DNA of 64,000 bases from Candidatus Bathyarchaeia archaeon. Lineage in GTDB: Archaea; Thermoproteota; CALKCG01; B24. The first letter of the stretch is position 1, and each line of letters begins with the position of its first letter. This document shows positions 6 through 46,185 of the stretch, in pieces. Location of the stretch: NCBI GenBank assembly GCA_038870975.1, contig JAVZJD010000001.1, positions 384,001 to 448,000 on the forward strand. Direction: 5' to 3'. The notes beneath the pieces were generated by a model. That model searched no databases and was not told the DNA's origin. It saw only the letters and a program-made list of their open reading frames with translations. Position numbers and translations under genes: made by a program.

Positions 6-1886
6 TTGCTTATAGGTAGTTTCCCCTACTGGATTACCAGTGCATTAGGCGAGTCTGTCTGCCATATAGGGTTAACTACAGCGCCATTCCTAATGCTTCT
101 GTTAACCGCCCCACTTTATAAATTTAAATCTCTAAGGGACAGGTTAGGTGTTAAAACCTTGGCATACCTATACATAAGCTCTTTAGCAACATCGTACTTC
201 ATACACTATCCATGGGCGCTGTGTACACACTATATGTATGCTCTAAGAATTACATTACGCGAGCTGGCAGACATGGTTATACCGACTTTTATGGCCCCTC
301 CGTATGAAGTGGCCATTCTCCTATCAGAGGGTGGACCAATAGACTGGGGTGCTTGGGCAACTCCAATTACCTGGTATTGGCTTCTAAACGTAACCGTAAG
401 CTTTTTCATGCTGTCACTGGCTACTCTATTTAGAAGACTCTGGATAGATATAGAAAAGGTGCCATTTCCACACGGTTTGATTGCATATGAATTGGCCGAA
501 AACATCTCTAGGGAAAAGGGTTGGAGTAGGTTTTTCTTAATAGGAGTACTACTAGGACTTATTTTCCAAATTCCAGTAACTCTCACTGGAATATTCCCAT
601 GGTTTCCAGACGTATACGGCGTCAACTACAGATCTTGCCCCATGCTAACGCGATGGTTTGGAGGGGATGAGCCTTTAGGTACCATACCGGGTATGATGAG
701 TATGACGTACAGTCCTACTGCGGTGGCCGTAGCTTACATGGCTCCTCTGCACATACAGTTTAGCACATGGTTTTTCGCTTTAGTATACATAATAGCCGTT
801 CAAATATCTTACTACATGGGCTATTACACCGGAATAACAGGCATAGGTACATGTGGTAGATATTGGTGTAGCCCATCTCCATCTACAGACCCACCTCTTA
901 AATTTATGGCTGTAGCAGTAGGTGCTTTAATAGCATTTGGCATTATGCATTTAATACTTAATAGAAGATATATAATTGAAACCTTTAAAGAAGCATCTAA
1001 AAGCTCTAGCGAGTTTAAAGAAGAAGTTATGACCTACAGAACGTGTTACATAATGCTGGCTATTTCTCTCGTAGCTTCCACGCTGTTCTGGATGTGGTCT
1101 ACCATGACGCTTTTAGATGCATTAATCATGGCTTTAACTGCTTTTTGCATATGGTATCCCATGAGCAGGCTTTTTGGATTAGCCGGAGCATACTGGAGAA
1201 GTGTAGACAAGGGCTTCGTTTTCTTCAGATTACTCTATCCGACTTGTCATGACCCGCCAACGACTAGAGAATTCCTAGTGTTTAGGATGTCCACTTTCTT
1301 GTCGGATACACCATCTTACCCGTGGGGTGGAGCCGCCGTCTCATCATTTACATCCTATAAATTTGCCAGTCTTGCTGGTCTAAGCGCAAAAGATGCATTT
1401 AAAACACTAGCCACAGCTTTTCTGATAGCGCCTCTCGTATCGAATATCGCCCTCATATGGCTCCTACATGCAGTAGGCGGTAGACGTATAGGAATATGGT
1501 CAAGTTGGTACTTGGGAGGAACCTGGGCGCTAACTGGTGTACCTACAAGCTGGGTTACACTACCAGCTCGCGAGCCTTGGGTTGAATATAGCATAATTGG
1601 AGCTATAATAGCTATTGCGCTCAGCTTACTTCACGCCAGGTTCGTATGGTTCCCACTTGAACCCATAGGTTACATATTAGGTACTACATGCGCTTCGGCT
1701 CTCTTCGGATTATGGTCTGCTTTTCTTGTTGCATGGGTGCTTAAAATGCTGACTTTGAGAATTGGAGGCGCTAAACTCTATGAGGAGAGCGGTATTCCAA
1801 TAGCCTCTGGAGCAGTAACAGGATGTATGATAGGGATGATATTAGGCGGAATAATATGGATAATAAGGTTCTTCATACCGTTTTAA
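6..1886 (+). CDS. OPT-superfamily-like polytopic membrane protein (DUF6785/DUF6784 type), putative transporter; probably starts upstream of the window
   Basis: Many hydrophobic segments; 'RRLWIDIEKVPFPH' and 'ARFVWFPLEPIG...LRIGG' motifs; full-length paralogue of 44182..46185, which is about 20 aa longer at the N-terminus. Confidence 0.8.
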   Translation: MLIGSFPYWITSALGESVCHIGLTTAPFLMLLLTAPLYKFKSLRDRLGVKTLAYLYISSLATSYFIHYPWALCTHYMYALRITLRELADMVIPTFMAPPYEVAILLSEGGPIDWGAWATPITWYWLLNVTVSFFMLSLATLFRRLWIDIEKVPFPHGLIAYELAENISREKGWSRFFLIGVLLGLIFQIPVTLTGIFPWFPDVYGVNYRSCPMLTRWFGGDEPLGTIPGMMSMTYSPTAVAVAYMAPLHIQFSTWFFALVYIIAVQISYYMGYYTGITGIGTCGRYWCSPSPSTDPPLKFMAVAVGALIAFGIMHLILNRRYIIETFKEASKSSSEFKEEVMTYRTCYIMLAISLVASTLFWMWSTMTLLDALIMALTAFCIWYPMSRLFGLAGAYWRSVDKGFVFFRLLYPTCHDPPTTREFLVFRMSTFLSDTPSYPWGGAAVSSFTSYKFASLAGLSAKDAFKTLATAFLIAPLVSNIALIWLLHAVGGRRIGIWSSWYLGGTWALTGVPTSWVTLPAREPWVEYSIIGAIIAIALSLLHARFVWFPLEPIGYILGTTCASALFGLWSAFLVAWVLKMLTLRIGGAKLYEESGIPIASGAVTGCMIGMILGGIIWIIRFFIPF

Positions 1887-1890
1887 ACAA

Positions 1891-1904
1891 TCCATTATTT
1901 TTTT
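1891..1904 (+). terminator. Oligo-T archaeal terminator candidate
   Basis: TCCATTATTTTTTT just after the stop codon; similar CCA..ATTTTT tracts follow the paralogues at 4950 and 46185. Confidence 0.5.
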
Positions 1905-1972
1905 AGACGTTTTCTATGCAAGTCTGTGGGAAAACCTTTTAACGTTCTTACATCGATTTTTCAAATCAAACT

Positions 1973-2550
1973 TGACCACTTAAAGTTTTAACAGTGAAAA
2001 TGATGAGGGCGCTGGGGGAATACGAAAGGACTCTAAACATTCCATGCAATACGTCTTCGAGCATATGGAAGGCTACTACGGATACCGGGAGAACTACGTT
2101 GACTTGCTTATGGATGAGGAGTTACGCTCTTTAAGAACTGTATGCTTGAAGATACTGAAAAATGCTTCATAGAAGCTACGAACTATTCTAAAAACCTCTG
2201 CGTAGGCGTAACTGCATCCAGAATATAGGCAAGATTTAATACGACTTTACTATACTCGCTTGACATACGAAAATTTGTAGAATTTTCCATATAGCACAAA
2301 GAATATGGTCTGAAGCCCTTAAACAGGTTGAGAGAGCTGAGCTTATGCTTAGAGAATTATTAGGAAAATTGATTGATGAAACTAAGTTTGAATCGAATAA
2401 GCTGTCTAAGGAATTCGAAGATGTAAAATGGTTTCTTAGCACGCATACATGGAGCCGATGTTTCATTTGCAAACTTACACTATGTGCTAAGAGTTGGAAT
2501 ATATCGATTAATGAATTGTGAAAGGTGGGTTGAAGAGATAAATAAATTTG
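1973..2550 (+). pseudogene. Internally deleted, frameshifted copy of the DUF5107-TPR gene (5029..8226)
   Basis: 1983-2005 matches 5046-5068 (21/23), then the match jumps to about 7566-8150; exact 20-mers AAAATGCTTCATAGAAGCTA (2159/7716) and GTTTCATTTGCAAACTTACA (2460/8062); multiple stops and frameshifts. Confidence 0.9.
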
Positions 2551-2923
2551 TGGCATCTTTATATTATAAGTTTTTACTTGCTTTCTTGAAAAATCTCGCA
2601 GGAATACAGTTCTATATCGTATTGATTAAATGTCTCTGCATAGTTTAAGATATCAATCCAACTCTTTAATTCAGTTGTATGTAAGCGAACTTGTATAATC
2701 GCTCGACTAGAAACATTCAAGTTTTTCTCCATCAAACTTACATAGCTTTTTATGGATTTTCAAGTAAACTTCTCCACCTACTTTGAGGTGTCTTCTCTTC
2801 AAACTCTTAAAATTGTTTTTCAATGTTTTGACGTTAATAATTTAAGATGGATAATGTTTACTGTACCTACGTGCCCTTGAGGAATTCGAATTCTATAAAG
2901 TAGAGAGAATATGTGGTAGAAAC

Positions 2924-3379
2924 CTAAGAGCCATCAGAAGGTTTACAAGTAGAAGTTGTTTTAGTATTCAGCCAAATCCTCCTTATTCCAGGTATTTTAT
3001 CAAATTCTCCGTCTTCTGAAACTATCTGTTTAATTCCAGCTTTGGTCATGGAGGATACGTGAAGTGCATCTGAAGGTTTTAATCCATGATTGACCATAGT
3101 CTTCTTCATGGCATTATAGTCTGTGTAATCTATTGGGATAACGTCTAGGAGAGGCATCAACCTATCGATCAGCTCAAACACTTCAACCAGTGCAATCTTA
3201 TATTTTCTGGTTAAAATCCATAAGACCTCATCTATAACAACCATGTTGATGAATAAACGGTCTCTACGTTTAACGGCTTCCTTCAAAAAGTTCGTTACGT
3301 AGTTGAAGATTTCATCGCTCTCAGAGTATCTCAAGTATATCAGATAAGATGAGTCAAGGAAAATTTTCAAGGGCTTCAT
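2924..3379 (-). CDS. vapC: PIN-domain VapC toxin
   Basis: IFLDSS...VIDEV...LKPSDALH...IVSEDGEFD acidic PIN motifs; overlaps the upstream AbrB gene. Confidence 0.9.
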   Translation of the reverse strand: MKPLKIFLDSSYLIYLRYSESDEIFNYVTNFLKEAVKRRDRLFINMVVIDEVLWILTRKYKIALVEVFELIDRLMPLLDVIPIDYTDYNAMKKTMVNHGLKPSDALHVSSMTKAGIKQIVSEDGEFDKIPGIRRIWLNTKTTSTCKPSDGS

Positions 3380-3599
3380 CCTCTAAGCTGATCTTAGAGA
3401 CGAGTTTTGCTATCGGTTTTCTATATTCTCTTAACCAGTTTAGAAGCTCTTCAATATCCAACCCCTTCTGTAAGGAGATCTCGTTTTCCTTGACGTCTGC
3501 AATTACGTAGCTATAGGGCTTAATCCCAAGCTTATCCCTAAAAATCTTGGGAAGCACTATCTGCCCTTTAGGTCCAACTTTCAATTTAAGTTTAACCAT
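3354..3599 (-). CDS. AbrB/MazE/SpoVT-family antitoxin (VapB)
   Basis: KVGPKGQIVLPKIFRDKLGI AbrB signature; start taken at MVKLK (ORF extends to 3608). Confidence 0.88.
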   Translation of the reverse strand: MVKLKLKVGPKGQIVLPKIFRDKLGIKPYSYVIADVKENEISLQKGLDIEELLNWLREYRKPIAKLVSKISLEDEALENFP

Positions 3600-3634
3600 A
3601 AGTATCATAAAGTATTACTATAAGTTTAACCATA
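3587..3634 (-). promoter_or_regulatory. 14-bp direct repeat, putative antitoxin autoregulatory operator
   Basis: TAAGTTTAACCATA at 3587-3600 and 3621-3634; one copy covers the antitoxin start codon, the other abuts the TATA-like TTTATA. Confidence 0.6.
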
Positions 3635-3718
3635 TAAATCTTCTTATGTTAAATACGCATGGATTTGATAACGTTGCTCACAATATTTGGGAAGGTTTTC
3701 AATCTATTAAAAAACTAT

Positions 3719-3738
3719 CATTTAAACCGGTTTAAATG
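3719..3738. promoter_or_regulatory. Perfect 20-bp palindrome, operator candidate over the GH4 start codon
   Basis: CATTTAAACC|GGTTTAAATG; includes ATG 3736; AT-rich TATA-like TATTAAAA at about 3705-3712. Confidence 0.55.
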
Positions 3739-4700
3739 GGCTCTCAATAAAAGATAACACTTCTTGGAGAGGAATCTCCTTCGTCCTATCCATGATTTAC
3801 GTGATGCTTGAGAATAAAGAGGTTCTTGAGGGTAGCGAAATATGTCTTATGGATATAGATCCTATGCGTCTCCTACTGCTAATAAGACTAGGTGAAAAAC
3901 TCTCTAGAAGAGCGAATGTTAAAATGAGGTTTACTTGGATTACAGACCCTAGGGAGGCTCTTGAAGGAGCTATGTTTGTTATGCCTGGTTATAGAATAGG
4001 TGGTGTGAAACATATGATGTTTGACTTCGAAATACCGATGAAGTATGGTATATGCGGCGGTGAAACTGCTGGTCCTGAGGCACGTTTATGGCTCAATGTA
4101 CTATTCCATCTACTCTCAACTAATGTAAGATGATAGAGGATTTATGTCCAGATGCTTGGGTTATAAGCTACGTTAATCCTACGAATTTTGTAGTAGATGC
4201 TGTTCGAAGAGTAACGAAGGTGAAGTTTATCGCTATTTGCGATACTTCATCGGGTTGCTATGAGAACTCTCCCACTGTGGTTAAATATACCTCCGTTCGA
4301 GAGGAGATACTGTGTTAATGAAGACATAAGACCGCAGGAGATAGGCGTTAATCATAATACTTGGCTTGTAGACCCTCTGGTTAATGGGGAAGACGCTATC
4401 CTCTACTTAGGATTATACTTAGAAAATATAAGGAAGATGAAGAGAAGTGTGTTCCAACGTTTTTCCGGGACCAGATGAGTTTACTATGCATCTCTTCGAG
4501 GTATACGGCTATGTAAACATCTGTGCATACTACTGTCACATGTACTGGGAGCACAATAAGGTTATGGAAATTGGGAAGAGAATACCTGAGGCGTCTATAT
4601 TAGGGTGGTCTAAGTCGGCTTGGGACTTCGTCAACGAAATGCTTGCCAGTGCTGACTACGACCCTAACAGCTCAGAATATTGCTTCCACTTACATCGCTC
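3736..4700 (+). pseudogene. GH4 (NAD+/Mn2+-dependent alpha-galactosidase/glucosidase family) pseudogene
   Basis: Fragments KITLLG, LMDID, REALEGA, GETAGP, CPDAWVISYVNP, GVNH spread over several frames; stop at codon 5; C-terminal part deleted. Confidence 0.88.
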
Positions 4701-4701
4701 T

Positions 4702-4950
4702 AGGTTCGTATGGTTTCCACTTGAACCCATAGGTTACACACTTGGTACTACAGGTGCTTCAGCCTTGTTCGGGTTATGGTCTGCGTTCCTCGTTACGTGG
4801 GTGCTTGAAATGTTAACTCTTAGAATTGGAGGAACTAAACTCTACGAAGGTTGTGGAGTTCCAATAACCTCTGGAGCCATAACAGGATGCATGATAGGAA
4901 TGATACTAGGCGGAATAATGTGGATAATAAGGTTCTTCATACCATTCTAA
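4702..4950 (+). pseudogene. 3' remnant of an OPT-like (DUF6784-type) membrane protein gene, fused in frame to the GH4 remnant
   Basis: Colinear near-identical copy of 1638-1886 (offset 3064), RFVWFPLEPIG...IIRFFIPF*. Confidence 0.9.
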
Positions 4951-5028
4951 ATAAACCCCACCATTTTTCAGATGATTTTCAATGCAAATTCGTACAAAAT
5001 TTTAAAACTCTTACGTTAAATCCTTAAA

Positions 5029-8000
5029 TTGATGTTGCCCATTCGAAGTTTTAACTCTGAAAATGATGGAGCCGTGAAGGTTTGGGAAGGATATGTCGTC
5101 AAGCCCACTTACAGGATATTGAGAGAGGATAATCTTCCGTATTTTATGAGTAAATACTACCCTTATACTAGGTTAGACTTCTTCGATTATTCAGAACCCA
5201 CTCCAGTCAAGTATAAGGAACTCGTCGTGGAGAATGAATACCTTAAAATATCCGTTAGACCGGAGTTTGGCGCCCGCCTGTTCTCAGCGTTTGATAAAAT
5301 ATCTGAGAATCAAGTATTCCACTATGTTGACACAATCAAACCCTTCTTAATAGCTCAAAGGGGAGCATGGATTGCAGGGGGATTAGAGTTTAACTTATGC
5401 CAACATCCGAGCCATACGGCGGACAATTTTTCACCCGTCGATTACACGTATGTTAAGAATGAAGATGGAAGCGCCTCGATATTGATAGGTAACCTCATAC
5501 TGTATACTAACGTAAGATATTTAGTTGAGATTGCTTTAAGACCTAAGACTGCCAGGATAGATGTTCGCGTGAAAATCTTCAATACAGACCTCATTCCTCA
5601 GAGGTACTACTTCTGGTCTAATGCCGCCGTATCTGCAAGTGAAAACCTCCGTTTCTTCTACCCTGGTTCTCTCTCAAACATAGGTAAATTTCCAGTGAAT
5701 GAAGAAGGTATCGACTTAAGCTGGTATGTAAATTACGATAGACCATTGAGCATATTCATTCTAGATTCCGAAGAAGACTTTTTTGCCGCGTACGACTATA
5801 AGTCTTCCAAAGGACTTGTTCACTATGCAGATCACAACATCATTCCTGGGAAGAAGATATTCAGCTGGGGGCTATCTGAGGACGGCTTATTCTGGAAAGA
5901 CCTCCTATCAGATAAAGGCATACCTTACGTAGAAATTCAAAGTGGGCGTTTTCTAACTCAGGGGATAGTTGAGCTTATAGACCCGTTGAATTTTGAGTCT
6001 TGGGAAGAATACTGGTATCCAGTTCGAGATATGGATGGTATAACATATGCTAACGAAAAGGTAGCCATTTACATAAACGAGGAAAATAAAGCTGAGCGTA
6101 AACTTCAGATCAATGTATGTTCAGCCATATCGTGTAAAGCTAGGCTCATACTATACGCAGAGGGTGAAAAATTCCACGAGGAACTGATAGAGCTTTTACC
6201 TGAGAAGACACTTAAGAGAGAGGTTAGAGCACCGCTTGGAAAACTATTGCTTAAAATAATCGATGTAAATGGAGGGGAAATAATTTCATGGGATTTTCGA
6301 AGTTATAGAACAAAACCGCATGAAGCCCCCTCATGGATTGGAGAGGTCCCAAATTGGAACTGGGGTGATACTGCTGAAGAGCTTTGGTTGAAGGGAGTTG
6401 ATTCTCTAAAGAGGGAGACTTTTCTTAAAGCTGAAAGATACTTCACAGCTTCTTTGGAGAAGGATGGGGCCTTCTCTAAAAGTCTATGCGCTCTAGGACT
6501 CCTATATTATAGATCAGGTCTGTACGATAAAGCCGTATCCTTCTTTCAGAGGGCATTGATGAGAAATCCATATGATGAAGAAGCACGTTACTACCTTGGT
6601 TTAACAATGCTCGTTTTAAACAATCTCGAGGAAGCTGAGAGAGAACTCTGGAAGGTTTCCTCAAAAATAGGCTACAGACCGTTAGCACTATACCTCCTAG
6701 GTATTATAAGGATGAGGTTGAACGCGTATCGTGATGCTGAAGATATGTTGCAAAGAGCAATAAAAGAGTACAGTTACAATTTGAAAGCCTTATGCACTCT
6801 CTCCATGGCTCTTAGAAAGCAGGGGAAGCGTGAGGAGGCATGGAGGATTTTAGAGGAAGCACATCGTATAATGCCTCTCGATTACCTAGTGCTTGCGGAG
6901 AGGTATCTTCTATCTTCAGATGAGGAGTTTAAAAGAGTGGTCTTTACAAGCTTCCAGAAGGTTTTGGAGGCGTCAAAAGATTACATATTTGCAGGTCTAT
7001 TTGATGATTCATTGGCGATATTAAAAGCCGCATTGGAGCATGGTATACGTAATCCGCTAATCTACTATTACATTGGGTACTCCTACAAGAAGATGGGTAG
7101 ATTTAACGATGCAATAGACTACTACAAATATGGAGGTAGGGAAAGCATCGATTATGTTTTTCCGCATAGGTTAGAGGATTTAGAGGTTCTTAAAGACGTC
7201 GTTAGCAGTCTCCCATTAGATCCAACACCGCATTATTTACTCGGCAACGTCTTATTCTATCTGGGACGGTTTAAGGAGGGTCTTGAGGAATGGGAGAAGG
7301 CTTATATGCTTGGGTTGAGAAACGCTGTGCTTTGCCGCAATATTGCACATGCTCACGCTCTCTTAACATTTGACTACGATAGAGCTATTAACATGTACTT
7401 AGAGGCCATAAGACTTGAACCTGAAAATCATAAACTCTACGTGGAACTGGATGATATTTACTCAAAGACTGGCGACCATACTGAACGTGTTAAATTGCTG
7501 GAGAATATACCTCGGAAAGCTAAGCATAGTGCATTACTCGCTAGGCTTGCTTCAGCATACGTTGATACTGGGGAGTATGAGAAGGCTCTAAATATTCTAT
7601 GTAACACGTTTTTCGAGCCTATGGAGGGTTACTACGGGTTTTGGGAAATTTACGTTGATGCTCTTATGGCTAAAGGATTTACACTTTTCAAGAGCTGTAT
7701 GTTTGAAGATGCTGCAAAATGCTTCATAGAAGCTATGAGTTATCCTAAAAACCTCGGTGTAGGTGCACCGCATCCAAAATATAGGCGAGATCTAATGCAA
7801 CTTTACTATGCTGGTTTATCATATGAAAAGCTCGGAGAACTTTCTACTGCGCAGAGGATATGGTCTGCTGCTCTCCAACGGATTTCTGAGAATCCTGAGA
7901 ATCACGTATTTAAAGCTTTGATTTTACGAAAACTGGGAAGAGTTGAAGAATCCAGGCTTATGCTTAGAAAAGTCGTTGAGGAAGCCAAGTTAGAATTGAA

Positions 8001-8226
8001 TAGACTGTCTAAGGAATTCGGGGATGAAGATAGTTACTTAGCATCTATACATGGAACTGACGTTTCATTTGCAAACTTACATTATGTATTGGGGCTTGGG
8101 TACATCGCCCAGGGAATGATAGAGGCTGGAATTGAAGAAGTAGATAAATCGTTAAAATTGACCAAAGTTGTTAGACACGCGCGATGGATTAAAGATGGAA
8201 CAATTCCAATACCGTCGCTCCTCTAG
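5029..8226 (+). CDS. DUF5107-domain + multiple TPR repeat protein (YphG-like)
   Basis: N-terminal ENEYLKISVRPEFGARL...WIAGGLEFN...YYFWSNAA...PGKKIFSWG...YVEIQSG; C-terminal ~600 aa of TPR-like helices. Confidence 0.85.
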   Translation: MMLPIRSFNSENDGAVKVWEGYVVKPTYRILREDNLPYFMSKYYPYTRLDFFDYSEPTPVKYKELVVENEYLKISVRPEFGARLFSAFDKISENQVFHYVDTIKPFLIAQRGAWIAGGLEFNLCQHPSHTADNFSPVDYTYVKNEDGSASILIGNLILYTNVRYLVEIALRPKTARIDVRVKIFNTDLIPQRYYFWSNAAVSASENLRFFYPGSLSNIGKFPVNEEGIDLSWYVNYDRPLSIFILDSEEDFFAAYDYKSSKGLVHYADHNIIPGKKIFSWGLSEDGLFWKDLLSDKGIPYVEIQSGRFLTQGIVELIDPLNFESWEEYWYPVRDMDGITYANEKVAIYINEENKAERKLQINVCSAISCKARLILYAEGEKFHEELIELLPEKTLKREVRAPLGKLLLKIIDVNGGEIISWDFRSYRTKPHEAPSWIGEVPNWNWGDTAEELWLKGVDSLKRETFLKAERYFTASLEKDGAFSKSLCALGLLYYRSGLYDKAVSFFQRALMRNPYDEEARYYLGLTMLVLNNLEEAERELWKVSSKIGYRPLALYLLGIIRMRLNAYRDAEDMLQRAIKEYSYNLKALCTLSMALRKQGKREEAWRILEEAHRIMPLDYLVLAERYLLSSDEEFKRVVFTSFQKVLEASKDYIFAGLFDDSLAILKAALEHGIRNPLIYYYIGYSYKKMGRFNDAIDYYKYGGRESIDYVFPHRLEDLEVLKDVVSSLPLDPTPHYLLGNVLFYLGRFKEGLEEWEKAYMLGLRNAVLCRNIAHAHALLTFDYDRAINMYLEAIRLEPENHKLYVELDDIYSKTGDHTERVKLLENIPRKAKHSALLARLASAYVDTGEYEKALNILCNTFFEPMEGYYGFWEIYVDALMAKGFTLFKSCMFEDAAKCFIEAMSYPKNLGVGAPHPKYRRDLMQLYYAGLSYEKLGELSTAQRIWSAALQRISENPENHVFKALILRKLGRVEESRLMLRKVVEEAKLELNRLSKEFGDEDSYLASIHGTDVSFANLHYVLGLGYIAQGMIEAGIEEVDKSLKLTKVVRHARWIKDGTIPIPSLL

Positions 8227-8280
8227 GATTGTGGATTTCAAGTATTCGTTTAACAATTTTATAATCTCCTAAATATCATT

Positions 8281-36987: not shown

Positions 36988-38091
36988 GTGGTGGTCTTTC
37001 TGAAGACTCTCCTATATAAGGAAGACTGGGAAAGAGTTTCTGAAACCTATGAAGCTTGGTGGGAAGGTGAGCTGACCAGACCAATCATATTTTTGACACA
37101 TGTATCGCCTAATGTAGACGTTATCGACTACTCTTTAACTTTGAGCTGGGCTTTTATGAGATTTCATCCAGAGAAGGCTCTAGAAGCCCTCTTTGAGTGT
37201 TTCTCTAAAACAGTATTCATGTGTGAAGCCTATCCTAACGTTTTTGTAAACATCGGTCCTGGTGCATTATCGGCTTTTCTAGGTGCGGATATAGATTTCA
37301 ATCTGAAGGCAGGAACATCTTGGTTTAAGGGATCTTTTTCTTTAGACGACCTTCTTAGTGTTGAATTAAACCCTGAGAATAAGTGGTGGCGTTATGTGAT
37401 CGAATGCACTAGAAAAGCTTCAGCCATGTGTAAGAATAAAGCTATAGTCGCTTTCACAGACATTTTAGACGTAGCTACAAGTTTAGTGCATCTTAGAGGT
37501 GGAGCGTCAAAATTGGTTAAAGACGTATTTCTTGAACCCATCAAACTGAAGAAGGTTTTAAATAATCTACATCAAATCTGGTTCTACTGTTTTGAGAAAA
37601 TCTCAGAAGTAATCGATACGAGTATTTACGGTTTTTCAAATTGGGCCACACTATGGAGCAAGCGGAAATCTTTCATACTTCAATGCGACTTCAGCGTATA
37701 TCTTTCCCCTAGATTATTCGAAGAATTCATACTTCCCCTTGTAGTTGAAGAGTGTAAATTCTTTGAGAGAAGTTTCTGGCATTTAGATGGCCCTCTCGAA
37801 ATCCCCCACCTTGACAAACTCTTAAACATAAGTGAACTTAACGGTATACAGTGGATCCCTGGGGCTGGAAATCCAGATCCAGGTGATAGCTGTTGGATTC
37901 CACTGTATAGGAAAATACAGAGTGCTGGGAAGCTCCTCCAACTTCCTGGGATTCCCATATCTAAAGTAATTCCAGTTTTAGATCAAATATCACCTAAAGG
38001 CGTTTTCATTCAAACTTCAACCTTAAATCTTGAGAACGCTGAAGCTTTCTGCAGAAAAATGTCTGAGAAATACGGTGTTCAACTTAAGTGA
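36988..38091 (+). CDS. Uroporphyrinogen-decarboxylase-fold protein (methyltransferase-like)
   Basis: LRGG, QCDFS...SP..FEEFILP, HLDGP, IQWIPGAG. Confidence 0.65.
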   Translation: MVVFLKTLLYKEDWERVSETYEAWWEGELTRPIIFLTHVSPNVDVIDYSLTLSWAFMRFHPEKALEALFECFSKTVFMCEAYPNVFVNIGPGALSAFLGADIDFNLKAGTSWFKGSFSLDDLLSVELNPENKWWRYVIECTRKASAMCKNKAIVAFTDILDVATSLVHLRGGASKLVKDVFLEPIKLKKVLNNLHQIWFYCFEKISEVIDTSIYGFSNWATLWSKRKSFILQCDFSVYLSPRLFEEFILPLVVEECKFFERSFWHLDGPLEIPHLDKLLNISELNGIQWIPGAGNPDPGDSCWIPLYRKIQSAGKLLQLPGIPISKVIPVLDQISPKGVFIQTSTLNLENAEAFCRKMSEKYGVQLK

Positions 38092-38165
38092 CGATGACAT
38101 CATACTTTCAAACTTCTAAAGATTTCATACCTTTATCTATGAATAGCCCTTAAAGTATGTCGTGA

Positions 38166-38951
38166 TTAAACTACCAGGCTAAGCCAATTTAACGTCTTGT
38201 TTATAACCTCCAGCGTATGTTCTCTCTTGGAAAACGTATGATCTCCACCTTTAACTATGTAGAGCTCATTTTTATCGTTTAAACCTCTAATAATCTCATA
38301 TCCCTTTTCAGCTTCTTCTAAAGGTACGAGAAGATCCCGATCTCCATGTATGATCAACACCGGGATTTTAATCTTACCCATAACTTCGAAGGGGACCACA
38401 TAGTCAACTGTATCAAAGAAACTTTTCCTTAAATACCAGCCATCTGAAACTTCAATTGCTTCACCAGCATTAAGCCTCTCCAATGCATCCTTACTCATAT
38501 GGCTGAGGAGCCTATCCCGCAGAGGGCCAAGAGCCGCTGAGTACAATATTGCAAATTTTACACGTTCGTCTTTCGACGCCAGTATGGTTGCAACCCTTCC
38601 ACCCATACTTAAACCTATGACTCCAACCCTTCTTTTATCGACCCTCCTTTGCTTTATTAGAAAAGTTAAAGCAGCTTCTGCATCATCTACTTCGCCAGGC
38701 AAAGTCATATCTTCAAACTCACCATCGCTATCACCTGACCCTCTAAAGTCAAACCTGAAAACTGTGAAACCTGATTTGCAAAGTTTTCTCGCTACTTGGA
38801 CAAAAAGTCTATGAGCCTCCGTTTTGTTTCCAGTAAAACCGTGGAACATGACTACTCCCGGGGTTTTTTCCTCTGGTTTCAAATCATCAGGTAAATGGAG
38901 TATTCCAACTAATTCTTGGTTTTGGTTTTTAAAAACCACAGGTTTAATCAT
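38166..38951 (-). CDS. Alpha/beta-hydrolase (esterase/peptidase S9-like)
   Basis: HGFTG, FDFRGSG, GLSMGG nucleophile elbow, HGDRD, GDH. Confidence 0.9.
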   Translation of the reverse strand: MIKPVVFKNQNQELVGILHLPDDLKPEEKTPGVVMFHGFTGNKTEAHRLFVQVARKLCKSGFTVFRFDFRGSGDSDGEFEDMTLPGEVDDAEAALTFLIKQRRVDKRRVGVIGLSMGGRVATILASKDERVKFAILYSAALGPLRDRLLSHMSKDALERLNAGEAIEVSDGWYLRKSFFDTVDYVVPFEVMGKIKIPVLIIHGDRDLLVPLEEAEKGYEIIRGLNDKNELYIVKGGDHTFSKREHTLEVINKTLNWLSLVV

Positions 38952-39114
38952 TTTTAATAACCTCCAACGTATAGACTCAAGGTTATAGGTAATAAGCTTT
39001 AGTCTTCTGTACGTGTTTCATGGTTAATGTAGCTCCATACAATGACATTCTAAATAGCATCGATTTAAAGATAAGTATAGACGAAGTAGCATAAGGTATT
39101 ACTTAGAGGTATGG

Positions 39115-39239
39115 ATGACTGGCAAGAAAGTAAGTGTAAGCCTTCTAGAAGAACTTCTAAAAAGCATAGACGAGTTATCTCGAAAGCTAATGTGGTAAGA
39201 AGTGAATTTATAGCTAGAATACTAGAGGGGAACCTGTGA
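39115..39239 (+). pseudogene. CopG/ribbon-helix-helix regulator remnant
   Basis: MTGKKVSVSLLEELLKSIDELSRK, then a frameshift to VRSEFIARILE; GAGGT SD-like motif upstream. Confidence 0.6.
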
Positions 39240-39394
39240 ACGTTAACAGTCAGAACTGATCATAAATATCAACGGTACTCTGGAAATTAAGTACAATCGG
39301 TTATCTGAGAATAATCAAAAGATAGCTTTAAATAAATGAATTTTCATAAAAATGAGAGGACATTAATCATTTAATTTAAATTTTATCTCTCAGA

Positions 39395-40702
39395 TCAACA
39401 AGAAAAACCTTTAAGATATTTTTCTTCGGCTTTAAACATTTCATCAACCATGTTTTTTATCTCATCTATAGTAAGTATTGCACTAGTTAATGGATCTACT
39501 AGTACTGCTTGAAATACCAATTCTTTACTCTTCTCTAAGATGGCTTTAGTTGCGAGTTCTTGAACATTTATATTCATTCTATTTAAAGCTGCACACTGCG
39601 GAGGTAGCATACCAACGTAGCAAGGATGTACCCCGGTCTTATCCACAACGCAGGGGACTTCGACGCAGCAACCATATGGAAGATTTGTGATCAGTCCAGT
39701 ATTCCTAACGTTTCCGTAGATTAAACTCGGTATACCTGTTTCCATCGAATGTATTACTGAGGAACAGTATTCTGCACTTCTACGTATAGGTATTTTCTCA
39801 GGGCTCTCGATCAGCTTTCTAAACGCTTCATCCTCTTTACCTCTATCTCCCATAGATTGGATACGCCTTAAAGTCCCAACTAATTTAAACTTCTCCATTA
39901 TATCCTGTCTTTTTCTGAAATAGGGTAGGTACTCGGACAGATGGTGGCTCGACTCACTTGGATAGTAGCCTATAGCTTTGAAAACTTCTATCCTCACGAG
40001 GTCTCTTCCAGCAGGACCTTTGTAGAACTCAGGGTCTTCAATCCTCTTCCTTAAAATGGGATAGGCGTCTTCTTCATGCCATTTAAACTCTAAAAACCAG
40101 GACATGTGATTTATCCCGGCTGAGAGATATGATATTTCCGTTGGAGGAACATTTATGTAGTTTGCGAGGGTATGCGCAGTACTTTGAACACTATGGCATA
40201 ATCCAATCACGTTTACTTTAGTGCCTTCATACACGCTCCAACATACTATAGCCATGGGATTTGTATAGTTCATTAGAAGAGCATCAGGACATAATTCCTC
40301 CATATCATAGCATATGTCTAGTATAGCTGAAGCATTTTTCAAACCGTAGAATACACCTCCAGGTCCAACGGTATCCCCTACAGCCTGATCTACTCCATAT
40401 TTTAGAGGTATCTCTAGGTCAAGCTTAGTAGCTTCAAGACCGCCTGCTCTAATAGATGTTACAACATAATCTGCTCCTTCTAAAGCTTCTCTACGATTAG
40501 CCGTAGCCTCTATCTTAGTTTTAAAACCCCACTGATCTACGAGTTTCCTTGCGAAAGCTTCAGTGAGACTTAGCCTATCTTTATCTATATCTACAAGGCT
40601 AATTGTGCAATCTCTAAGCTCAGGGTAGGATAGTATATCTGTTATGAGATTTTGACCGAACACGTGGCTCCCAGCACCTATGAGAACGACTTTAAACGTC
40701 AT
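39395..40702 (-). CDS. melA: GH4 alpha-galactosidase
   Basis: IGAGS, GDTVGPGG, NYTNPM, GLCHSVQ, AGINH, ESSHHLSEY, VEVP; start at MTFKVV (ORF extends to 40795). Confidence 0.9.
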   Translation of the reverse strand: MTFKVVLIGAGSHVFGQNLITDILSYPELRDCTISLVDIDKDRLSLTEAFARKLVDQWGFKTKIEATANRREALEGADYVVTSIRAGGLEATKLDLEIPLKYGVDQAVGDTVGPGGVFYGLKNASAILDICYDMEELCPDALLMNYTNPMAIVCWSVYEGTKVNVIGLCHSVQSTAHTLANYINVPPTEISYLSAGINHMSWFLEFKWHEEDAYPILRKRIEDPEFYKGPAGRDLVRIEVFKAIGYYPSESSHHLSEYLPYFRKRQDIMEKFKLVGTLRRIQSMGDRGKEDEAFRKLIESPEKIPIRRSAEYCSSVIHSMETGIPSLIYGNVRNTGLITNLPYGCCVEVPCVVDKTGVHPCYVGMLPPQCAALNRMNINVQELATKAILEKSKELVFQAVLVDPLTSAILTIDEIKNMVDEMFKAEEKYLKGFSC

Positions 40703-40782
40703 GTCAACCCCATTAGATATGTGAAGGGCTTTAGATATAAATACTTGGACTGTAATTGTATCGGTCTGGAGGTGTTGATTGA

Positions 40783-42150
40783 TTGGAGAGTACAATATGG
40801 CGGGTTTTGAATGAGATCCCGGACTTCAAAGAGTTTATGACTGTTGATGAACTTAACATGAGCACCAGAGAACTAGCGTTTAAATATCCAGATAGAGTTT
40901 CCATGTTTGAGATAGGCGAGGCGAGGAATGGAGAACCGATCAATTGTCTTAGAATAGGGTCTGGGAAGTTGACGGCTCTGCTCTTCGCTTTTCCACATCC
41001 CAATGAGCCAATTGGAAGTATGACGTTGGAGTATCTTTCTTGGAAGTTGTGTATGGATGATGCTTTTAGAAGTATGATGAATACGACGTGGTATATTGTA
41101 AAGTGCGCAGACCCTTTTGGAGCTAGATTAAACGAGGGTTGGTTCAAAGGAGACTGGTCTCCAAGAAAGTATGCTTTAAACTACTATAGGCCTCCTGGAT
41201 ATAAACAGATTGAATGGACTTTTCCAATAGAATATAAAACATTGAAGTTTAATAAGCCTACTCCTGAGACCCGTGCTTTAATGAATTTAATCGAAGAGAT
41301 TAAGCCTGACTATGTGAGTTCTCTTCATAACGCTGGTTTCTGCGGAGCTTATTTCTATCTTTCAGATCCAATTCCAAATGTATACGATAAACTCCATATG
41401 GTTGCATCTAAGTTTAATATCCCGCTTCATCTAGGTGAGCCTGAAGTACCTTATGCCAGTAAGTTTGCCGACGCTATCTTCAAAATGCCGACAGTAGTTG
41501 AGGAATATGAGTATTTAGCTACACATCTTAAGAAAGACCCATCTGAAGTGATAAGAAACGGTGCTAGTAGCGATGAGTACGTGAAGAGAGTTAACAAAGA
41601 TGCTTTAACACTGGTATGCGAGGTCCCCTACATATATGATGAGAGGATCGCTAATACTACACCAGTTGGTGTAAAACGTAGAGATGTCATACTTTTAGAA
41701 GCTGAAAAAACCAGACGGCAACTTGTAGAGCTTAAAAAGAGACTAGGAATTATCGAGCATTACGTTAATGAATCTTCTCCATTCTACGAGGCTTTATCGG
41801 AGTTTATAAGGATAGGACTTGAATCTGTAAAGGCTAGGAAGAACTGGGCGAAGAGAGACCCATCTACTGCTCGTCAGGCTACGGTTTCAGAGCTATTCGA
41901 TAATATGGTTGCTAGGGTCTATTTCTATGGAATTCTTAGGCTCGGATTATTCTATAGATTAACATGCGAAAAACCTGAGGAGCCCGCACTCAAGAAGCAT
42001 ACCGAGTGGAGCCTTAAAAAGATAGAGTATATGTGTAAAGAGTTTATGAATCTATCGAATTACTCAGTGATACCCATTAGAAACTTAGTAGGTGTTCAAT
42101 TAGGGTCAATACTCTATACATTAACAGCTAAATTATCATCTCTCAATTGA
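40783..42150 (+). CDS. M14 zinc carboxypeptidase-family protein
   Basis: PHPNEPIG (HxxE), DP.G..LN, SLHNAG, CEVPY. Confidence 0.8.
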   Translation: MESTIWRVLNEIPDFKEFMTVDELNMSTRELAFKYPDRVSMFEIGEARNGEPINCLRIGSGKLTALLFAFPHPNEPIGSMTLEYLSWKLCMDDAFRSMMNTTWYIVKCADPFGARLNEGWFKGDWSPRKYALNYYRPPGYKQIEWTFPIEYKTLKFNKPTPETRALMNLIEEIKPDYVSSLHNAGFCGAYFYLSDPIPNVYDKLHMVASKFNIPLHLGEPEVPYASKFADAIFKMPTVVEEYEYLATHLKKDPSEVIRNGASSDEYVKRVNKDALTLVCEVPYIYDERIANTTPVGVKRRDVILLEAEKTRRQLVELKKRLGIIEHYVNESSPFYEALSEFIRIGLESVKARKNWAKRDPSTARQATVSELFDNMVARVYFYGILRLGLFYRLTCEKPEEPALKKHTEWSLKKIEYMCKEFMNLSNYSVIPIRNLVGVQLGSILYTLTAKLSSLN

Positions 42151-42152
42151 CT

Positions 42153-44099
42153 TCAATCTTCAATTTTAAATGCATCTTCTGCACCTAGTACATCATATAC
42201 TTTGATTGTAAAATCGAAAAGCTTTCTCGCATTGTCAGCGTTTAATATGACGCCAGAACTATCAACTGGTCTTTTAATCCGCATCTTCCTAGGCGCTACG
42301 AGGGCGGCAACTTCAGGTATATCAGCGTAGAGTAGTATCCATGGTGGATATAGGCTTGGAGGCTGAGCTAGAGACTTCTCTATTCTATATGATGCTAAAA
42401 GCCTTTCGACTTCTAGTTCATCTATTCTACTGTCTAAAGCCGTTGCAAATAACGCTATTAACCCGGCGTCTGAGAAGCCATGGACTACAAGCTTCTTACG
42501 TAGGAACCCCCTAAATGCTAAATAATCTACAGTCCTTAAGACGTCGAACACCCTCATCCCAAGTATGTGTCTTCCTAAGACTAGACTATTCTTGGCTGCC
42601 ACACTTTCATCGTAATCGGTTTCCCCAACACCTCTGTAGTCGATTAAAACGGCAAGTCCCTTGTTTTCAACGACTTCTCTAACTCTTATATCGGCGAATA
42701 TCGAGGATTTACCTGAAGGTGTCAAGAAGATATGTGCTTCTTCAAACTCCCCCCTTCTTAAGAGGATAGTGGGGATCACTATATCCCATTCGCTTCTAAA
42801 GCTTGCATATTCCACTTCTATACCATCTATATATTCAACTCTATAGGTCCTAGCGTCTAAATCCGCCCTCCTTGGAAAACCTCCAAAGACATCATCAGTT
42901 ATGTGTTTCTTAAGCTCCTCTCTACGCTTGAGATATTCCTCTGGATTTAACTTTGCAAACCTGTTTAAAGAATCATACTTCGCATTATAAATTGAAAAGA
43001 TTGTTTCAGCTTTCTCTGGGATAATATTACAAAAGCATTTAAGCACGTTTGAATCAGGCGGCTCAACCACTATGACAGGTTCATGATAGTCTCTTTCAAC
43101 TCCCATAAGCCACCTATCAAACCAGCGATATACAATTTCTCTCATATCCTTATTATATCCGTGTGGTGCATAACTCTCATACATCGCTATTTTATCTTCA
43201 CAACCCATAAGACCGTATATGCTTTTTACGCGTGAGAAGGCTTTTCTCGCCGATGTTATTGGGAAAGTATCATCCAATACGCCGCTAACGATCAGTAGTG
43301 GACGTGGAGCTATACATGCCAATATATCGGGTATATTAGCAAATTTAAGCATACCAGGAATGCACTCGCAGAAGCATCTACCGGATGCAACTTGGTCTTC
43401 AAAAACCTCAGCTGAACATACTGGAGCTGCGACTTTAACTCTTTCATCTAACGCAGCTAGATACATTGTTTGATTTCCGCCTCCAGAGGCGCCAGTTACA
43501 CCTATGCGTTCTGGATCAACCTCCCTTCTAGATTGGAGATAGTCTATGGCACACATATTGTCGAAGACTTCAATGGCCTGTAGGGTTAAACCTACAGTGG
43601 GGAGTATGTAGCCTTCCCAATGGCCTTGATACCTTCTTTCACCATAACCTACTTTATCAATAGCCAGAGCTACATAACCTCTTAAGGCGAAGCCTATGCA
43701 ACTAGCCTGTATAGCATCTTGATGTTTAGCGTGAGGCCAGTGGCCATGTACTCTGAGAACGGCTGGTACTGGTTTTTCAAGCTTTGAAGGTATATATAGG
43801 TTGGCTGAAACGTAGAAACCCGGTATCGTCTCAAGAATAATCTTTTCTAAGACGTAGCCTTTCTTCTCAACTCTACCGACTAGATTAGCCTTAACGCTTC
43901 TCTCCGGTAGATTATCAACTCCCATAGCTTTCCTTAACATCGTCAAAATTCTGCTCCTCATTTCAAGCCAACTCGAATAATCGCTAGGTTTACACCTACT
44001 TCTTTCAAGTTCGTCACAAAGTCTTGCAAAATGTTCTCTAAGCATAGAACCATATCCATTGTAGAAAACGTTTAGATCACCCCATACATCTCTACTCAT
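42153..44099 (-). CDS. Two-domain alpha/beta-hydrolase (acetylxylan/glucuronoyl-esterase-like)
   Basis: VHGHW, GYGER, TGASGGG, APRP, PHGY; the second domain is degenerate. Confidence 0.75.
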   Translation of the reverse strand: MSRDVWGDLNVFYNGYGSMLREHFARLCDELERSRCKPSDYSSWLEMRSRILTMLRKAMGVDNLPERSVKANLVGRVEKKGYVLEKIILETIPGFYVSANLYIPSKLEKPVPAVLRVHGHWPHAKHQDAIQASCIGFALRGYVALAIDKVGYGERRYQGHWEGYILPTVGLTLQAIEVFDNMCAIDYLQSRREVDPERIGVTGASGGGNQTMYLAALDERVKVAAPVCSAEVFEDQVASGRCFCECIPGMLKFANIPDILACIAPRPLLIVSGVLDDTFPITSARKAFSRVKSIYGLMGCEDKIAMYESYAPHGYNKDMREIVYRWFDRWLMGVERDYHEPVIVVEPPDSNVLKCFCNIIPEKAETIFSIYNAKYDSLNRFAKLNPEEYLKRREELKKHITDDVFGGFPRRADLDARTYRVEYIDGIEVEYASFRSEWDIVIPTILLRRGEFEEAHIFLTPSGKSSIFADIRVREVVENKGLAVLIDYRGVGETDYDESVAAKNSLVLGRHILGMRVFDVLRTVDYLAFRGFLRKKLVVHGFSDAGLIALFATALDSRIDELEVERLLASYRIEKSLAQPPSLYPPWILLYADIPEVAALVAPRKMRIKRPVDSSGVILNADNARKLFDFTIKVYDVLGAEDAFKIED

Positions 44100-44123
44100 A
44101 CTCACGCCCCCTACTTTAACCAA

Positions 44124-44165
44124 TTCTCTTAAAATACTTATATAATACTTGGTTTTTTAAGAGAA
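44124..44165. promoter_or_regulatory. Inverted repeat flanking a shared TATA box of divergent genes
   Basis: TTCTCTTAAAA (44124-44134) / TTTTAAGAGAA (44155-44165); the 20-nt spacer contains TTATATAA. Confidence 0.55.
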
Positions 44166-44181
44166 ATTTGAGGCGAGGGAG

Positions 44182-46185
44182 ATGTCTGAGGGAAGCCAAG
44201 AGCGAATGCCATGGGCTCTCGTGATAGTTCTAACGGTTTTACTAGGCTCTATTGGAACGCTTTGGATTTCTACTCTTCCAGGAAGCCTTATCTCGGCATA
44301 CGACCTTGGGATAGTCGTCTGCGGCATGGAGTTAACATCAGCCCCCTTCATATTGGTGCTGATTACTGGCTTAGGTAGATTCTTTAAAGGGTTTAGAGCG
44401 AAAATAAACTCTACTGTTCTAACCTACGTATATACTGTAGCGATAGTAAGTTCTTACTTCATTTCAACCCACTGGCCGTGGAATATACCTATGCGCTTCT
44501 GGCTAGATAGATTTATGTATCCTGAAGATTCACAGGCCTTCGTACCATCATTTATGGCTCCCCCGGCTGAAATAACAAGACAATTGACTTTTGGAAAAGT
44601 ACCATTTCCAATGGTCGAGTGGCTTCCATCACTACTCTACTGGTGGCTTTGTCAAGTGTTATTCGGTTTATTTATGTTATCCATCGCCAATATATTACGT
44701 AGGCGATATATAGACATTGAAAAAGTGCCGTTTCCACACGCTATGGCTACCTATGAGTCAATAAGACACGTTTCCACGGATATTAAAGTTCCCGAGAAAA
44801 TTGTCAAATTTTTCCTGATAGGTTTGATCGTCGGCATTGGTCTTCAACTGCCTATATATTTGCAGGCTGCCTTTCCGTGGTTTCCAGACATATTCTCCTG
44901 GCGTGTTAACACATGCCCATCTGGTCAACAGTACGTGGGTTGGGGTGAAACAATACTTGGCTTGGTCTCTTTAACGGCTTGGAATAAACAACCTTTAGCA
45001 TACGCCATAGCTTACATGATGCCACTATCAGTTTTATTTAACGGCTGGTTCTGGTACGTCGTCCTCCTACTATTAACACAGGTAGCATATACCGCTGGAT
45101 ATTACACGGGTATACAAAACATAGGTGGATGCGGTAGGGCATGGTGTCATCCATCGCCGTTAAACGACCCACCTTTTAAATTCCACGTAATGACTTTTGT
45201 TGGGGGAAACCTTGGAATAGCAGTCTTGTATCTCTACCTAAGCAGAGACTATATAGTTGAAACGTTAAGAGCAGCGTTCAGTTCGAGAAGTAGCTCCTTT
45301 AAAGGTGTTGAAGCCACTGAGCCAACATCATACAAAACATCGTGGCTGATGCTCCTAGTGTCCTTGATACTCTGCATAGTATTCCTGCTGGTAACGGGGT
45401 TGAGTTTGACATCATCTCTAATATTCATGTTTACGATATTCATATTTTGGATCGCTTTTTCCAGAGTTTTCGGTCTAGCTGGACTACATACTAGAAGCGA
45501 TAGCTACGGTATGATCTTCTGGAAACCCATATGGCCTGTGGTTCCTGAAACTAGGACGAAGGATTTTGTCCTCTCAGTATGCTTAGTGAGGACGATGGGT
45601 ATTGATACACCATCATACGGATGGGGTGGAACACTTTTCGGAGCCTTCTGTAGTTATAGAGTTGCCAGTTTAACGGGTGTAAGTAGTAAGAATATATTCA
45701 AGACGTTGATTGTTACGATAGTATTGCTACCAATCGTGACACTTTCTACAGTGCTAACCATGAGTTATACGGTTGGCCTTAGCAGGTTTACTACGTACAA
45801 CTGGGGTTACGGTGATGGAATAATTCACCATCTAGCGAGCGAGTGGTATTACAATGAACAGCCTGCCGCCGGGTCGATGTTTGAATATATTCTAGTAGGA
45901 TTTATAATAGCAGGAGTTCTTTCAGCGCTTCACGCAAGGTTTATATGGTTCCCGTTTGAACCTATTGGATGGATTGTAGGCTGGAGCTATCTATCGATTC
46001 TATGGGGATTCTGGCTTCCATTCTTAGTAGCTTGGGTTCTAAAGTTCATAACCCTGAGGATAGGCGGAAGCAAGGGATATGAAGAAGTCGGTCTACCATT
46101 CTTCGGTGGAGTTGCCGCTGGATGTATGTTAGCAATATTCATAGGGGGATTGATAAGCATTATAAGGTTTTTCGTGCCATTTTAA
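44182..46185 (+). CDS. OPT-superfamily-like polytopic membrane protein (DUF6785/DUF6784 type)
   Basis: Paralogue of 6..1886: IDIEKVPFPH, FPWFPD, CGRxWCxPSP, DTPSY.WGG, ARFIWFPFEPIG. Confidence 0.8.
   Translation: MSEGSQERMPWALVIVLTVLLGSIGTLWISTLPGSLISAYDLGIVVCGMELTSAPFILVLITGLGRFFKGFRAKINSTVLTYVYTVAIVSSYFISTHWPWNIPMRFWLDRFMYPEDSQAFVPSFMAPPAEITRQLTFGKVPFPMVEWLPSLLYWWLCQVLFGLFMLSIANILRRRYIDIEKVPFPHAMATYESIRHVSTDIKVPEKIVKFFLIGLIVGIGLQLPIYLQAAFPWFPDIFSWRVNTCPSGQQYVGWGETILGLVSLTAWNKQPLAYAIAYMMPLSVLFNGWFWYVVLLLLTQVAYTAGYYTGIQNIGGCGRAWCHPSPLNDPPFKFHVMTFVGGNLGIAVLYLYLSRDYIVETLRAAFSSRSSSFKGVEATEPTSYKTSWLMLLVSLILCIVFLLVTGLSLTSSLIFMFTIFIFWIAFSRVFGLAGLHTRSDSYGMIFWKPIWPVVPETRTKDFVLSVCLVRTMGIDTPSYGWGGTLFGAFCSYRVASLTGVSSKNIFKTLIVTIVLLPIVTLSTVLTMSYTVGLSRFTTYNWGYGDGIIHHLASEWYYNEQPAAGSMFEYILVGFIIAGVLSALHARFIWFPFEPIGWIVGWSYLSILWGFWLPFLVAWVLKFITLRIGGSKGYEEVGLPFFGGVAAGCMLAIFIGGLISIIRFFVPF

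Follow-up and report, generated by a model that had tools for sequence, protein, structure and literature searches.

Radiation of an OPT-like transporter family in a Bathyarchaeia-type archaeal genome, with a subset of members linked to cytoplasmic glycosidases

Few uncultured archaea of sediments and hot springs are as abundant as the Bathyarchaeia, and what is said of their organic-carbon uptake is largely inferred. The present study asks what is carried by the DUF6785+DUF6784 membrane proteins encoded in a 64,000-nucleotide stretch of DNA from a hot-spring archaeon of this kind (the window, C1:384001-448000 of a 1.85-Mb genome of two contigs, C1 and C2), and how the cytoplasmic sugar enzymes encoded around them are fed. 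The nearest database homologues carry the labels Bathyarchaeia, Bathyarchaeota or Thermoproteota. The patterns detected are consistent, with a probability that we put at roughly 0.6, with a radiation in this lineage of secondary transporters resembling the oligopeptide transporter (OPT) family, a sizeable subset of which would import glycosides, oligosaccharides or amino sugars; the DUF5107 protein with tetratricopeptide repeats (DUF5107-TPR) encoded beside one of them would be no dedicated subunit, and the left-hand locus of the window would be a decayed duplicate.

Gene families in the window were assigned by Pfam scans. The two transporter genes of the window (copies 1 and 3) and all 21 paralogues of the genome pass the gathering thresholds of both DUF6785 (PF20581) and DUF6784 (PF20580), a family without assigned function for which no mention was found in the literature searched. 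The gene of copy 1 starts 94 nt before the window, which thus holds it incomplete; over 6..1886 it scores 9.5e-33 (113.9 bits) for DUF6785 and 1.9e-15 (57.3 bits) for DUF6784. An AlphaFold model of copy 3, built with 70 homologues (pLDDT 94.5, pTM 0.94), had significant fold matches in the PDB only to barley Yellow Stripe 1, HvYS1 (7WST/7WSR, E 1e-8, TM-score 0.61-0.67), the next matches having E > 7e-3 and TM-scores < 0.2. HvYS1, an OPT/YSL protein (TC 2.A.67; PMC9691689), shares the overall fold and the size of about 660 aa, but identity is only ~12-13%, the DUF6785 proteins lack the NPG and KIPPR motifs conserved in the OPT family (PMC3061005; NPG in 1 of the 21 paralogues, KIPPR in none), they reach an extreme copy number, and their gene neighborhoods suggest glycosides and other organics, and not peptides or metal chelates, as substrates. 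The Pfam OPT model PF03169 (cut-off 25.8 bits) matched the paralogue at C1:540541-542094 with 34 bits and scored copy 3 below cut-off at 23.4 bits, and several homologues carry precomputed PF03169 matches or the NCBI name 'OPT/YSL family transporter'. A PDB sequence search with the transporter profile returned nothing meaningful, and NCBIfam holds no model for the transporter. The fold match and the weak PF03169 match uphold the OPT-like label of a first-pass annotation of this DNA, and as judged from sequence and a predicted structure it is well supported that these prokaryotic proteins branch very distantly within the OPT/Yellow-Stripe superfamily; prokaryotic homologues of OPT have been described as uncharacterised (PMC3061005). 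Members of the OPT family are proton-coupled importers of small organic molecules, and the DUF6785 proteins are very probably importers as well.

There are 21 intact DUF6785 genes in the source genome together with four fragments, two C-terminal and two N-terminal, suggesting that birth and death of genes in the family is ongoing. Besides the remnant in the window, the fragments lie at C2:552146-552583 and C1:954716-955606 (N-terminal ~100 residues) and at C2:141223-141495 (C-terminal ~90 residues); the first is positioned 24 bp from a fifth GH4 (glycoside hydrolase family 4) gene of the genome, C2:550743-552122. Among 17 genomes of the class, copy number falls from 17-37 in the genus to 10-13 in the sister genus (10-37 within their family, f1) and 2-6 in the other three families, and of 121 genomes sampled across the phylum, 34 encode DUF6785. 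Deep branching in the paralogue tree is consistent with an old radiation and a few recent duplicates. DUF6785 outnumbers every other transporter family counted in the genome, where we found about 4 ATP-binding cassette (ABC) systems (BPD_transp_1), about 13 genes of the major facilitator superfamily (MFS), and, as binding proteins, one weak SBP_bac_1, one weak SBP_bac_8 and two Opp-type SBP_bac_5; no convincing CUT1-type sugar ABC importer or binding protein (SBP_bac_1/8) was found in the genome. In related drafts, several DUF6785 genes contain a single in-frame TGA (G004 C25:8452-9987, G005 C49:7274-8623 and G005 C144:4456-5943), which may reflect errors, pseudogenes or recoding.

The window itself holds no MFS or ABC permease match, as the first-pass annotation had stated, and its only other polytopic proteins are a P-type ATPase and an MscS-like channel. 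It is rich in cytoplasmic sugar enzymes: beyond the genes of the table these include GH2, a sulfatase, two FGGY kinases, GFO/IDH/MocA, UDP-glucose dehydrogenase, two xylose-isomerase-like TIM barrels and an HpcH aldolase. No N-terminal hydrophobic segment was seen in GH29, either of two GH38, GH3, GH4, DUF4838, GH2, the esterase or the sulfatase; these glycosidases and the esterase are therefore predicted to be cytoplasmic and to need imported substrates. The intact GH4 of the window, also without signal peptide, scores 566.6 bits against the alpha-galactosidase subfamily model NF011657 of NCBIfam (cut-off 486), one other GH4 exceeds the same cut-off, and the PDB neighbors of the GH4s did not discriminate between specificities. 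A GH99-like/WbsX-like protein at window positions 49734-50816 has a strong N-terminal transmembrane anchor and is the sole glycosidase-like protein checked with a predicted outward face.

Neighbors were tabulated as the three genes to either side of the 21 DUF6785 genes, 115 proteins in all. They include URO-D (6), GFO/IDH/MocA (5), DegT, GH4 and radical SAM (3 each) and MTTB, GH38, MFS and M20 (2 each). A GH29 fucosidase gene precedes one DUF6785 gene by 31 bp; another is followed after 113 bp by GH4 and then by MTTB, with URO-D genes flanking; DegT genes border one paralogue to left and right and follow another, at a spacing of 72-95 bp; GH38 is divergent from a tandem DUF6785 pair; and GH3 and DUF4838 are found nearby. 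Still others are positioned beside thiolase, aconitase, Nre or CTP synthase genes, or beside nothing informative. For 28 DUF6785 genes of other genera the 119 neighbors were again headed by GFO/IDH/MocA (5), AP_endonuc_2 (4) and URO-D (4), with GH38, GalK/GalT, DeoC, DHDPS and giant M28/FtsX proteins after them, in keeping with a link to sugars. Since the neighbors of the paralogues are so varied, the family is probably multi-substrate. The same-strand cluster URO-D - DUF6785 - GH4 - MTTB - URO-D at C1:1036417-1043860 couples a glycosidase with components of corrinoid-type methyltransferases.

In a permutation test on the source genome, five of the ten GH4 genes were within 6 kb of a DUF6785 gene, compared with 1.5 expected (P ~0.012); no significant excess near DUF6785 was seen for URO-D, GFO/IDH/MocA, MFS or ABC genes. 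Across the class, with coordinate lists cross-referenced by hand, 28 of 67 GH4 genes in family f1 were within 6 kb of a listed DUF6785 gene, at least 17 of them directly adjacent, compared with 0 of 24 in families f2-f4. The adjacencies comprise at least four to five arrangements involving different subclades of the transporter: GH4 followed by a copy-1-type DUF6785, DUF6785 followed by GH4 as at C1:1040696, the type of C24/C32 in G001/G002, that of G002 C38, and divergent pairs in G004, G005 and G006. These data support linkage of a subset of DUF6785 genes to cytoplasmic glycosidases, above all GH4, at a frequency above chance and across several independent arrangements.

For the left-hand locus, comparison of DNA with other genomes of the genus revealed an intact operon, GH4 then DUF6785 then DUF5107-TPR, in G003 (L038) and G004 (L041), and copy 1 is the orthologue of its transporter (~90% amino acid identity). 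Relative to that operon the window contains, in order, the transporter (-135..2004), a diverged 3' part of the TPR gene (2010-2547), the 5' two thirds of GH4 (3261-4703, 82-90% DNA identity to the relatives' GH4 5' region) and, from 4689, the last ~260 nt of a transporter joined to the intact TPR gene. Between the GH4 pseudogene and this remnant some 2.2 kb have been deleted, comprising the 3' third of GH4 and the first ~570 transporter codons, and a trace of about 100 nt of a GH4 3' end persists just upstream of copy 1. The decayed TPR-gene fragment, a VapBC pair and the GH4 pseudogene follow copy 1 in that order, VapBC lying exactly between the two decayed operon copies. Within the pseudogene, Pfam finds a Glyco_hydro_4 fragment at 3792..4133; the open reading frame containing the remnant (4447..4950) matches DUF6784 only, and its stretch at 4681-4923 is 79% identical to copy 1. 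The simplest reading of these alignments is a tandem duplication of the GH4-DUF6785-DUF5107-TPR operon followed by reciprocal decay, in which one copy would have kept the transporter alone and the other the TPR gene alone, with GH4 lost from both. We also considered whether the remnant and the GH4 fragment might be exons split by tRNA-type introns; but 2.2 kb are absent, frameshifts are present and relatives are syntenic, which rules this out and shows deletion.

The first-pass annotation had described three copies of the transporter, two of them directly upstream of a DUF5107-TPR gene and one preceded by GH4. Two of the three (6..1886 and 44182..46185) do carry both domains, the third being reduced to its last ~80 residues; this remnant does directly precede the TPR gene, whereas copy 1 is followed instead by the decayed TPR fragment; and the GH4 sequence in front of the remnant is real but a frameshifted pseudogene of residues ~21-253. 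At the same syntenic site, bordered by a MiaB-like gene on one side and ORF97/GFO/UDP-glucose dehydrogenase on the other, G006 and G007 have GH4 followed by DUF6785 (90% identical to copy 1) and no TPR gene. GH4 followed by DUF6785 thus appears to be the conserved core in the genus, with DUF5107-TPR either gained later in three genomes or lost from two. The operon GH4 of G003 (L038:6062-7513) consists of two same-frame open reading frames with a single stop codon between them (7049-7051), a pattern that recoding, incipient pseudogene formation or an error in the sequence might explain.

The DUF5107-TPR protein, product of the only DUF5107 gene in the genome, combines an N-terminal domain resembling galactose mutarotases with an Ig-like sandwich and a long solenoid of TPRs, and no N-terminal hydrophobic segment was seen in it. 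A model of residues 1-440 (pLDDT 90.1) matched PDB 5CD6, a structural-genomics entry, at E 7.6e-24 and, by its mutarotase supersandwich fold, the galactose mutarotases 3MWX, 3TY1 and 4BZE at E ~1e-10; a profile search likewise recovered 5CD6 (E 7.6e-52), with a weak sequence match to galactose mutarotases, and the invariant polar residues of DUF5107 are E120, H129, N185, K276, Y300 and E302. Members of the family are common among both bacteria and archaea, and their architecture of ~1000-1100 aa (PF17128 then TPRs) is conserved, being shared by Parabacteroides distasonis BDI_1685 (5CD6) and E. coli YphG. The placing of YphG in a sugar-uptake cluster by the first-pass annotation was accurate, yphG heading the yphGFEDCB operon with the sugar ABC genes yphFED and the mutarotase YphB; the neighbor there is an ABC system, whereas in the window it is a DUF6785 protein, and that only in part of one genus (the source genome, G000, together with G003 and G004). 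At all 8 other readable loci (G007, G001, G002 and five metagenomic), DUF6785 was absent within 7-10 kb of the DUF5107-TPR gene, no DUF6785 is near the DUF5107-TPR pseudogene of G006, and the locus in G014, cut by a contig end, was left out. Metagenomic contexts included GH5 with an Opp-type ABC system, GH38, and SusC/SusD with a GH36 alpha-galactosidase on a Bacteroidota-type contig, and one bacterial locus was without sugar genes.

From its modeled fold and these contexts, DUF5107-TPR would seem to be a cytoplasmic protein that binds or converts sugars and is recruited to uptake loci irrespective of the transporter class that the host employs. Its occurrence in sugar-uptake loci therefore lends indirect support to a sugar role for the copy-1-type transporter, and its association with unrelated transporter classes argues against a specific transporter-TPR complex. 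It appears to be a recently attached neighbor of DUF6785 and not its dedicated partner or subunit, and the intracellular partnership proposed by the first-pass annotation is not supported, given one gene for 21 transporters and adjacency in three genomes of one genus only. The analysis also assigns DUF5107/YphG to a mutarotase-like structural class and to a consistent genomic setting, that of sugar-uptake loci.

The mechanism that we favor would begin with radiation of DUF6785 by gene birth and death in a Bathyarchaeia-type lineage until it became the largest transporter family. In our inference every paralogue takes up its own small organic nutrient, and by analogy with characterized OPT members the uptake is probably driven by proton symport. 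A sizeable subset would most likely import glycosides, oligosaccharides or amino sugars for cleavage or conversion in the cytoplasm; it would comprise the copy-1 type, with its genus-wide GH4-DUF6785 pair, to which DUF5107-TPR became attached downstream in part of the genus, and paralogues beside other GH4s, GH29, GH38 and DegT, while methylated compounds or peptides are probably the cargo of others. Support for the sugar reading extends to the subset only and comes from context, namely the recurring independent glycosidase adjacencies and the transporter inventory. Should it be true of the GH4-linked members, sugars would join a range of OPT substrates that so far comprises peptides, glutathione, folate and metal chelates, it would become clear how a genome lacking sugar ABC systems of the CUT1 type feeds its cytoplasmic glycosidases, and metabolic reconstructions of these archaea would change. 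New in any case are the copy-number gradient of DUF6785, the statistics of its linkage to GH4, the account of how the duplicated operon decayed, and, for DUF5107, the likeness to mutarotases and the contexts in which it occurs.

Several observations weigh against assigning sugars to these transporters. We know of no characterized OPT member that carries sugar. Those characterized transport peptides, glutathione, folate or metal chelates (PMC3061005, PMC12687453). Enrichment of carbohydrate-active enzymes around the family, which the first-pass annotation would have predicted, is seen for GH4 at 6 kb and in f1, but not at 3 kb in the source genome (2 compared with 0.9 expected, not significant), and overall it is modest; the class-wide counts come from related, non-independent genomes, and the listing behind them left out 46 weak DUF6785 matches. 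GH4s directly adjoining DUF6785 score 241-344 bits, below the alpha-galactosidase cut-off. The lack of excess for URO-D and GFO/IDH/MocA counts on the same side, as do the mixed contexts of metagenomic homologues (amidohydrolase with TIM barrel and 2-hydroxyacid dehydrogenase; hydrogenase/Hdr; ADH/HAD; MTTB with GH5) and the peptidase-like neighbors of copy 3 (M14, M24 and S9/S15-like).

An unlikely alternative is that most paralogues import oligopeptides or glutathione-like peptides in the classical OPT manner, serving a protein-degrading archaeon, with the glycosidases coincidental in sugar-rich islands. This would agree with the peptide substrates of characterized OPT members (PMC3061005), with M20, M14 and M24 neighbors and with giant M28-like proteins in conserved operons with DUF6785; it would not account for the near lack of NPG and the lack of KIPPR, for GH4 adjacency in at least four independent arrangements or for the operon-like spacing to GH29, GH4 and DegT, and two Opp-type ABC systems are already present in the genome. 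It is somewhat less likely that the family carries only non-sugar small organics such as methylated amines, methoxylated compounds or organic acids, GH4 being close merely by its placement in shared catabolic islands: URO-D is the commonest neighbor family at home (6/115) and is frequent in other genera (4/119), MTTB is found too, and both occur in the operon at C1:1036417-1043860, but with 23 URO-D copies genome-wide the enrichment is not significant (P 0.12-0.4), and the operons with GH29, GH38 and DegT are left unexplained. Export or flipping of glycans or lipid-linked sugars for cell-envelope biogenesis is scarcely credible; DegT and UDP-glucose dehydrogenase/GFO near some paralogues can serve sugar-nucleotide biosynthesis, but the linked enzymes are for the most part catabolic hydrolases that lack signal peptides, 21 flippases are implausible for a genome of 1.85 Mb, and HvYS1, the only structural relative, is an importer.

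Two stronger versions of the sugar hypothesis fare differently. The first-pass annotation had taken the whole family for a dedicated glycan importer working with DUF5107-TPR and GH4 in a module like a polysaccharide utilization locus (PUL), which now seems improbable. The intact operons of G003 and G004, the decayed duplicates in the window, the carbohydrate-type mutarotase fold of DUF5107 and the retention by the source genome of exactly the transporter and the TPR gene after decay all fit that proposal; the ratio of one DUF5107 gene to 21 transporters, the pair without TPR gene in G006/G007, the 8 DUF5107-TPR loci without DUF6785 and the many paralogues with non-carbohydrate neighbors do not. 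Glycan import thus survives for the subset linked to cytoplasmic glycosidases and not for the whole family, whose contexts extend to methyltransferases, aminotransferases, peptidase-like proteins and hydrogenase. As in PULs of Bacteroidota, a transporter gene is co-located with glycosidases and esterase-like genes, but DUF6785 loci lack SusC/SusD, a dedicated regulator and any conserved block of several genes, the glycosidases are cytoplasmic, and only GH4-DUF6785 gene pairs recur, so that a PUL-like module is not supported. Tentatively, and with somewhat better prospects, the OPT branch may be the main carbohydrate uptake of a Bathyarchaeia lineage, in the role that binding-protein-dependent ABC systems have in other archaea, with separate paralogues devoted to different glycosides (alpha-galactoside-like GH4 substrates, fucosides, mannosides, amino sugars) and extracellular capture by small membrane-anchored PA14-like proteins possibly assisting some. 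Our preference remains for a multi-substrate radiation with a sugar-importing subset.

Coordinates of the features are collected in the table. Around copy 3, Pfam scans bore out the surroundings described by the first-pass annotation, an intact GH4, a divergent esterase-like gene (spacer 58 bp) and a class I aldolase downstream, which is probably co-transcribed with copy 3; this neighborhood was not conserved in 52%-identical homologues.

Table. Features of the window (positions in window numbering) and PA14-like genes in the source genome and related assemblies (contig or locus numbering)
Feature	Position	Strand	Remarks
DUF6785+DUF6784 transporter, copy 1	1..1886	+	Pfam; full gene C1:383907-385886, 659 aa
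Decayed fragment of second DUF5107-TPR copy	2056..2546	+	residues ~862-1040; 38-41% aa identity; frameshifts, at least 5 stops
VapBC-type toxin-antitoxin pair	2924..3614	-	PIN 2924-3379; AbrB/MazE-like 3354-3614
GH4 pseudogene	3777..4496	+	N-terminal ~250 residues (~21-253); frameshifted, internal stops
Transporter C-terminal remnant, DUF6784 part	4681..4950	+	~80 residues; second transporter copy
Intact DUF5107-TPR, 1065 aa	5029..8226	+	DUF5107 2.3e-56 plus TPRs
Intact GH4	39395..40795	-	both Glyco_hydro_4 domains (N-terminal NAD-binding and C-terminal)
M14 zinc-carboxypeptidase-like, without signal peptide	40783..42150	+	
Alpha/beta-hydrolase, 656 aa	42153..44123	-	Abhydrolase_7, glucuronyl-esterase and AXE1 matches; weaker S9/S15 peptidase matches
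DUF6785+DUF6784 transporter, copy 3, 667 aa	44182..46185	+	DUF6785 2.6e-27, 96.0 bits; DUF6784 3.6e-14, 53.2 bits
DeoC/LacD-family class I aldolase	46242..47069	+	56 bp downstream of copy 3
PA14-like proteins	C2:745878-746504 (= L027:10979-11605), C1:534760-535353, C1:1001996-1002646, C1:528178-529445; L057:9337-9951; L088:8654-9241		

The PA14-like proteins form a narrow family of 195-216 aa with an N-terminal transmembrane helix, a weak match to the carbohydrate-binding PA14 domain, and a hydrophobic C-terminal anchor that carries a basic tail. Of the five copies in the source genome, three are 13-111 bp from a DUF6785 gene, and one in G001 is 233 bp away; in other genera a first scan found direct adjacency in 1 of 41 contexts, and three Bathyarchaeota assemblies share a syntenic PA14-DUF6785-DegT locus. 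It is possible that these are extracellular substrate-capture proteins.

Two paralogous three-gene operons (C2:318542-326639 and C1:540508-549297 of the source genome) each encode a giant membrane protein of 1421-1566 aa, M28-peptidase-like in one, a polytopic protein of 633-650 aa and a DUF6785 protein. The polytopic protein is a very distant relative of DUF6785 (E 5e-7 with a hidden Markov model of the paralogues), the operon is conserved in the sister genus (G001 L056:212-9035), and FtsX matches were present among the neighbors in other genera. A further PIN-domain toxin is encoded at window positions 59178-59570.

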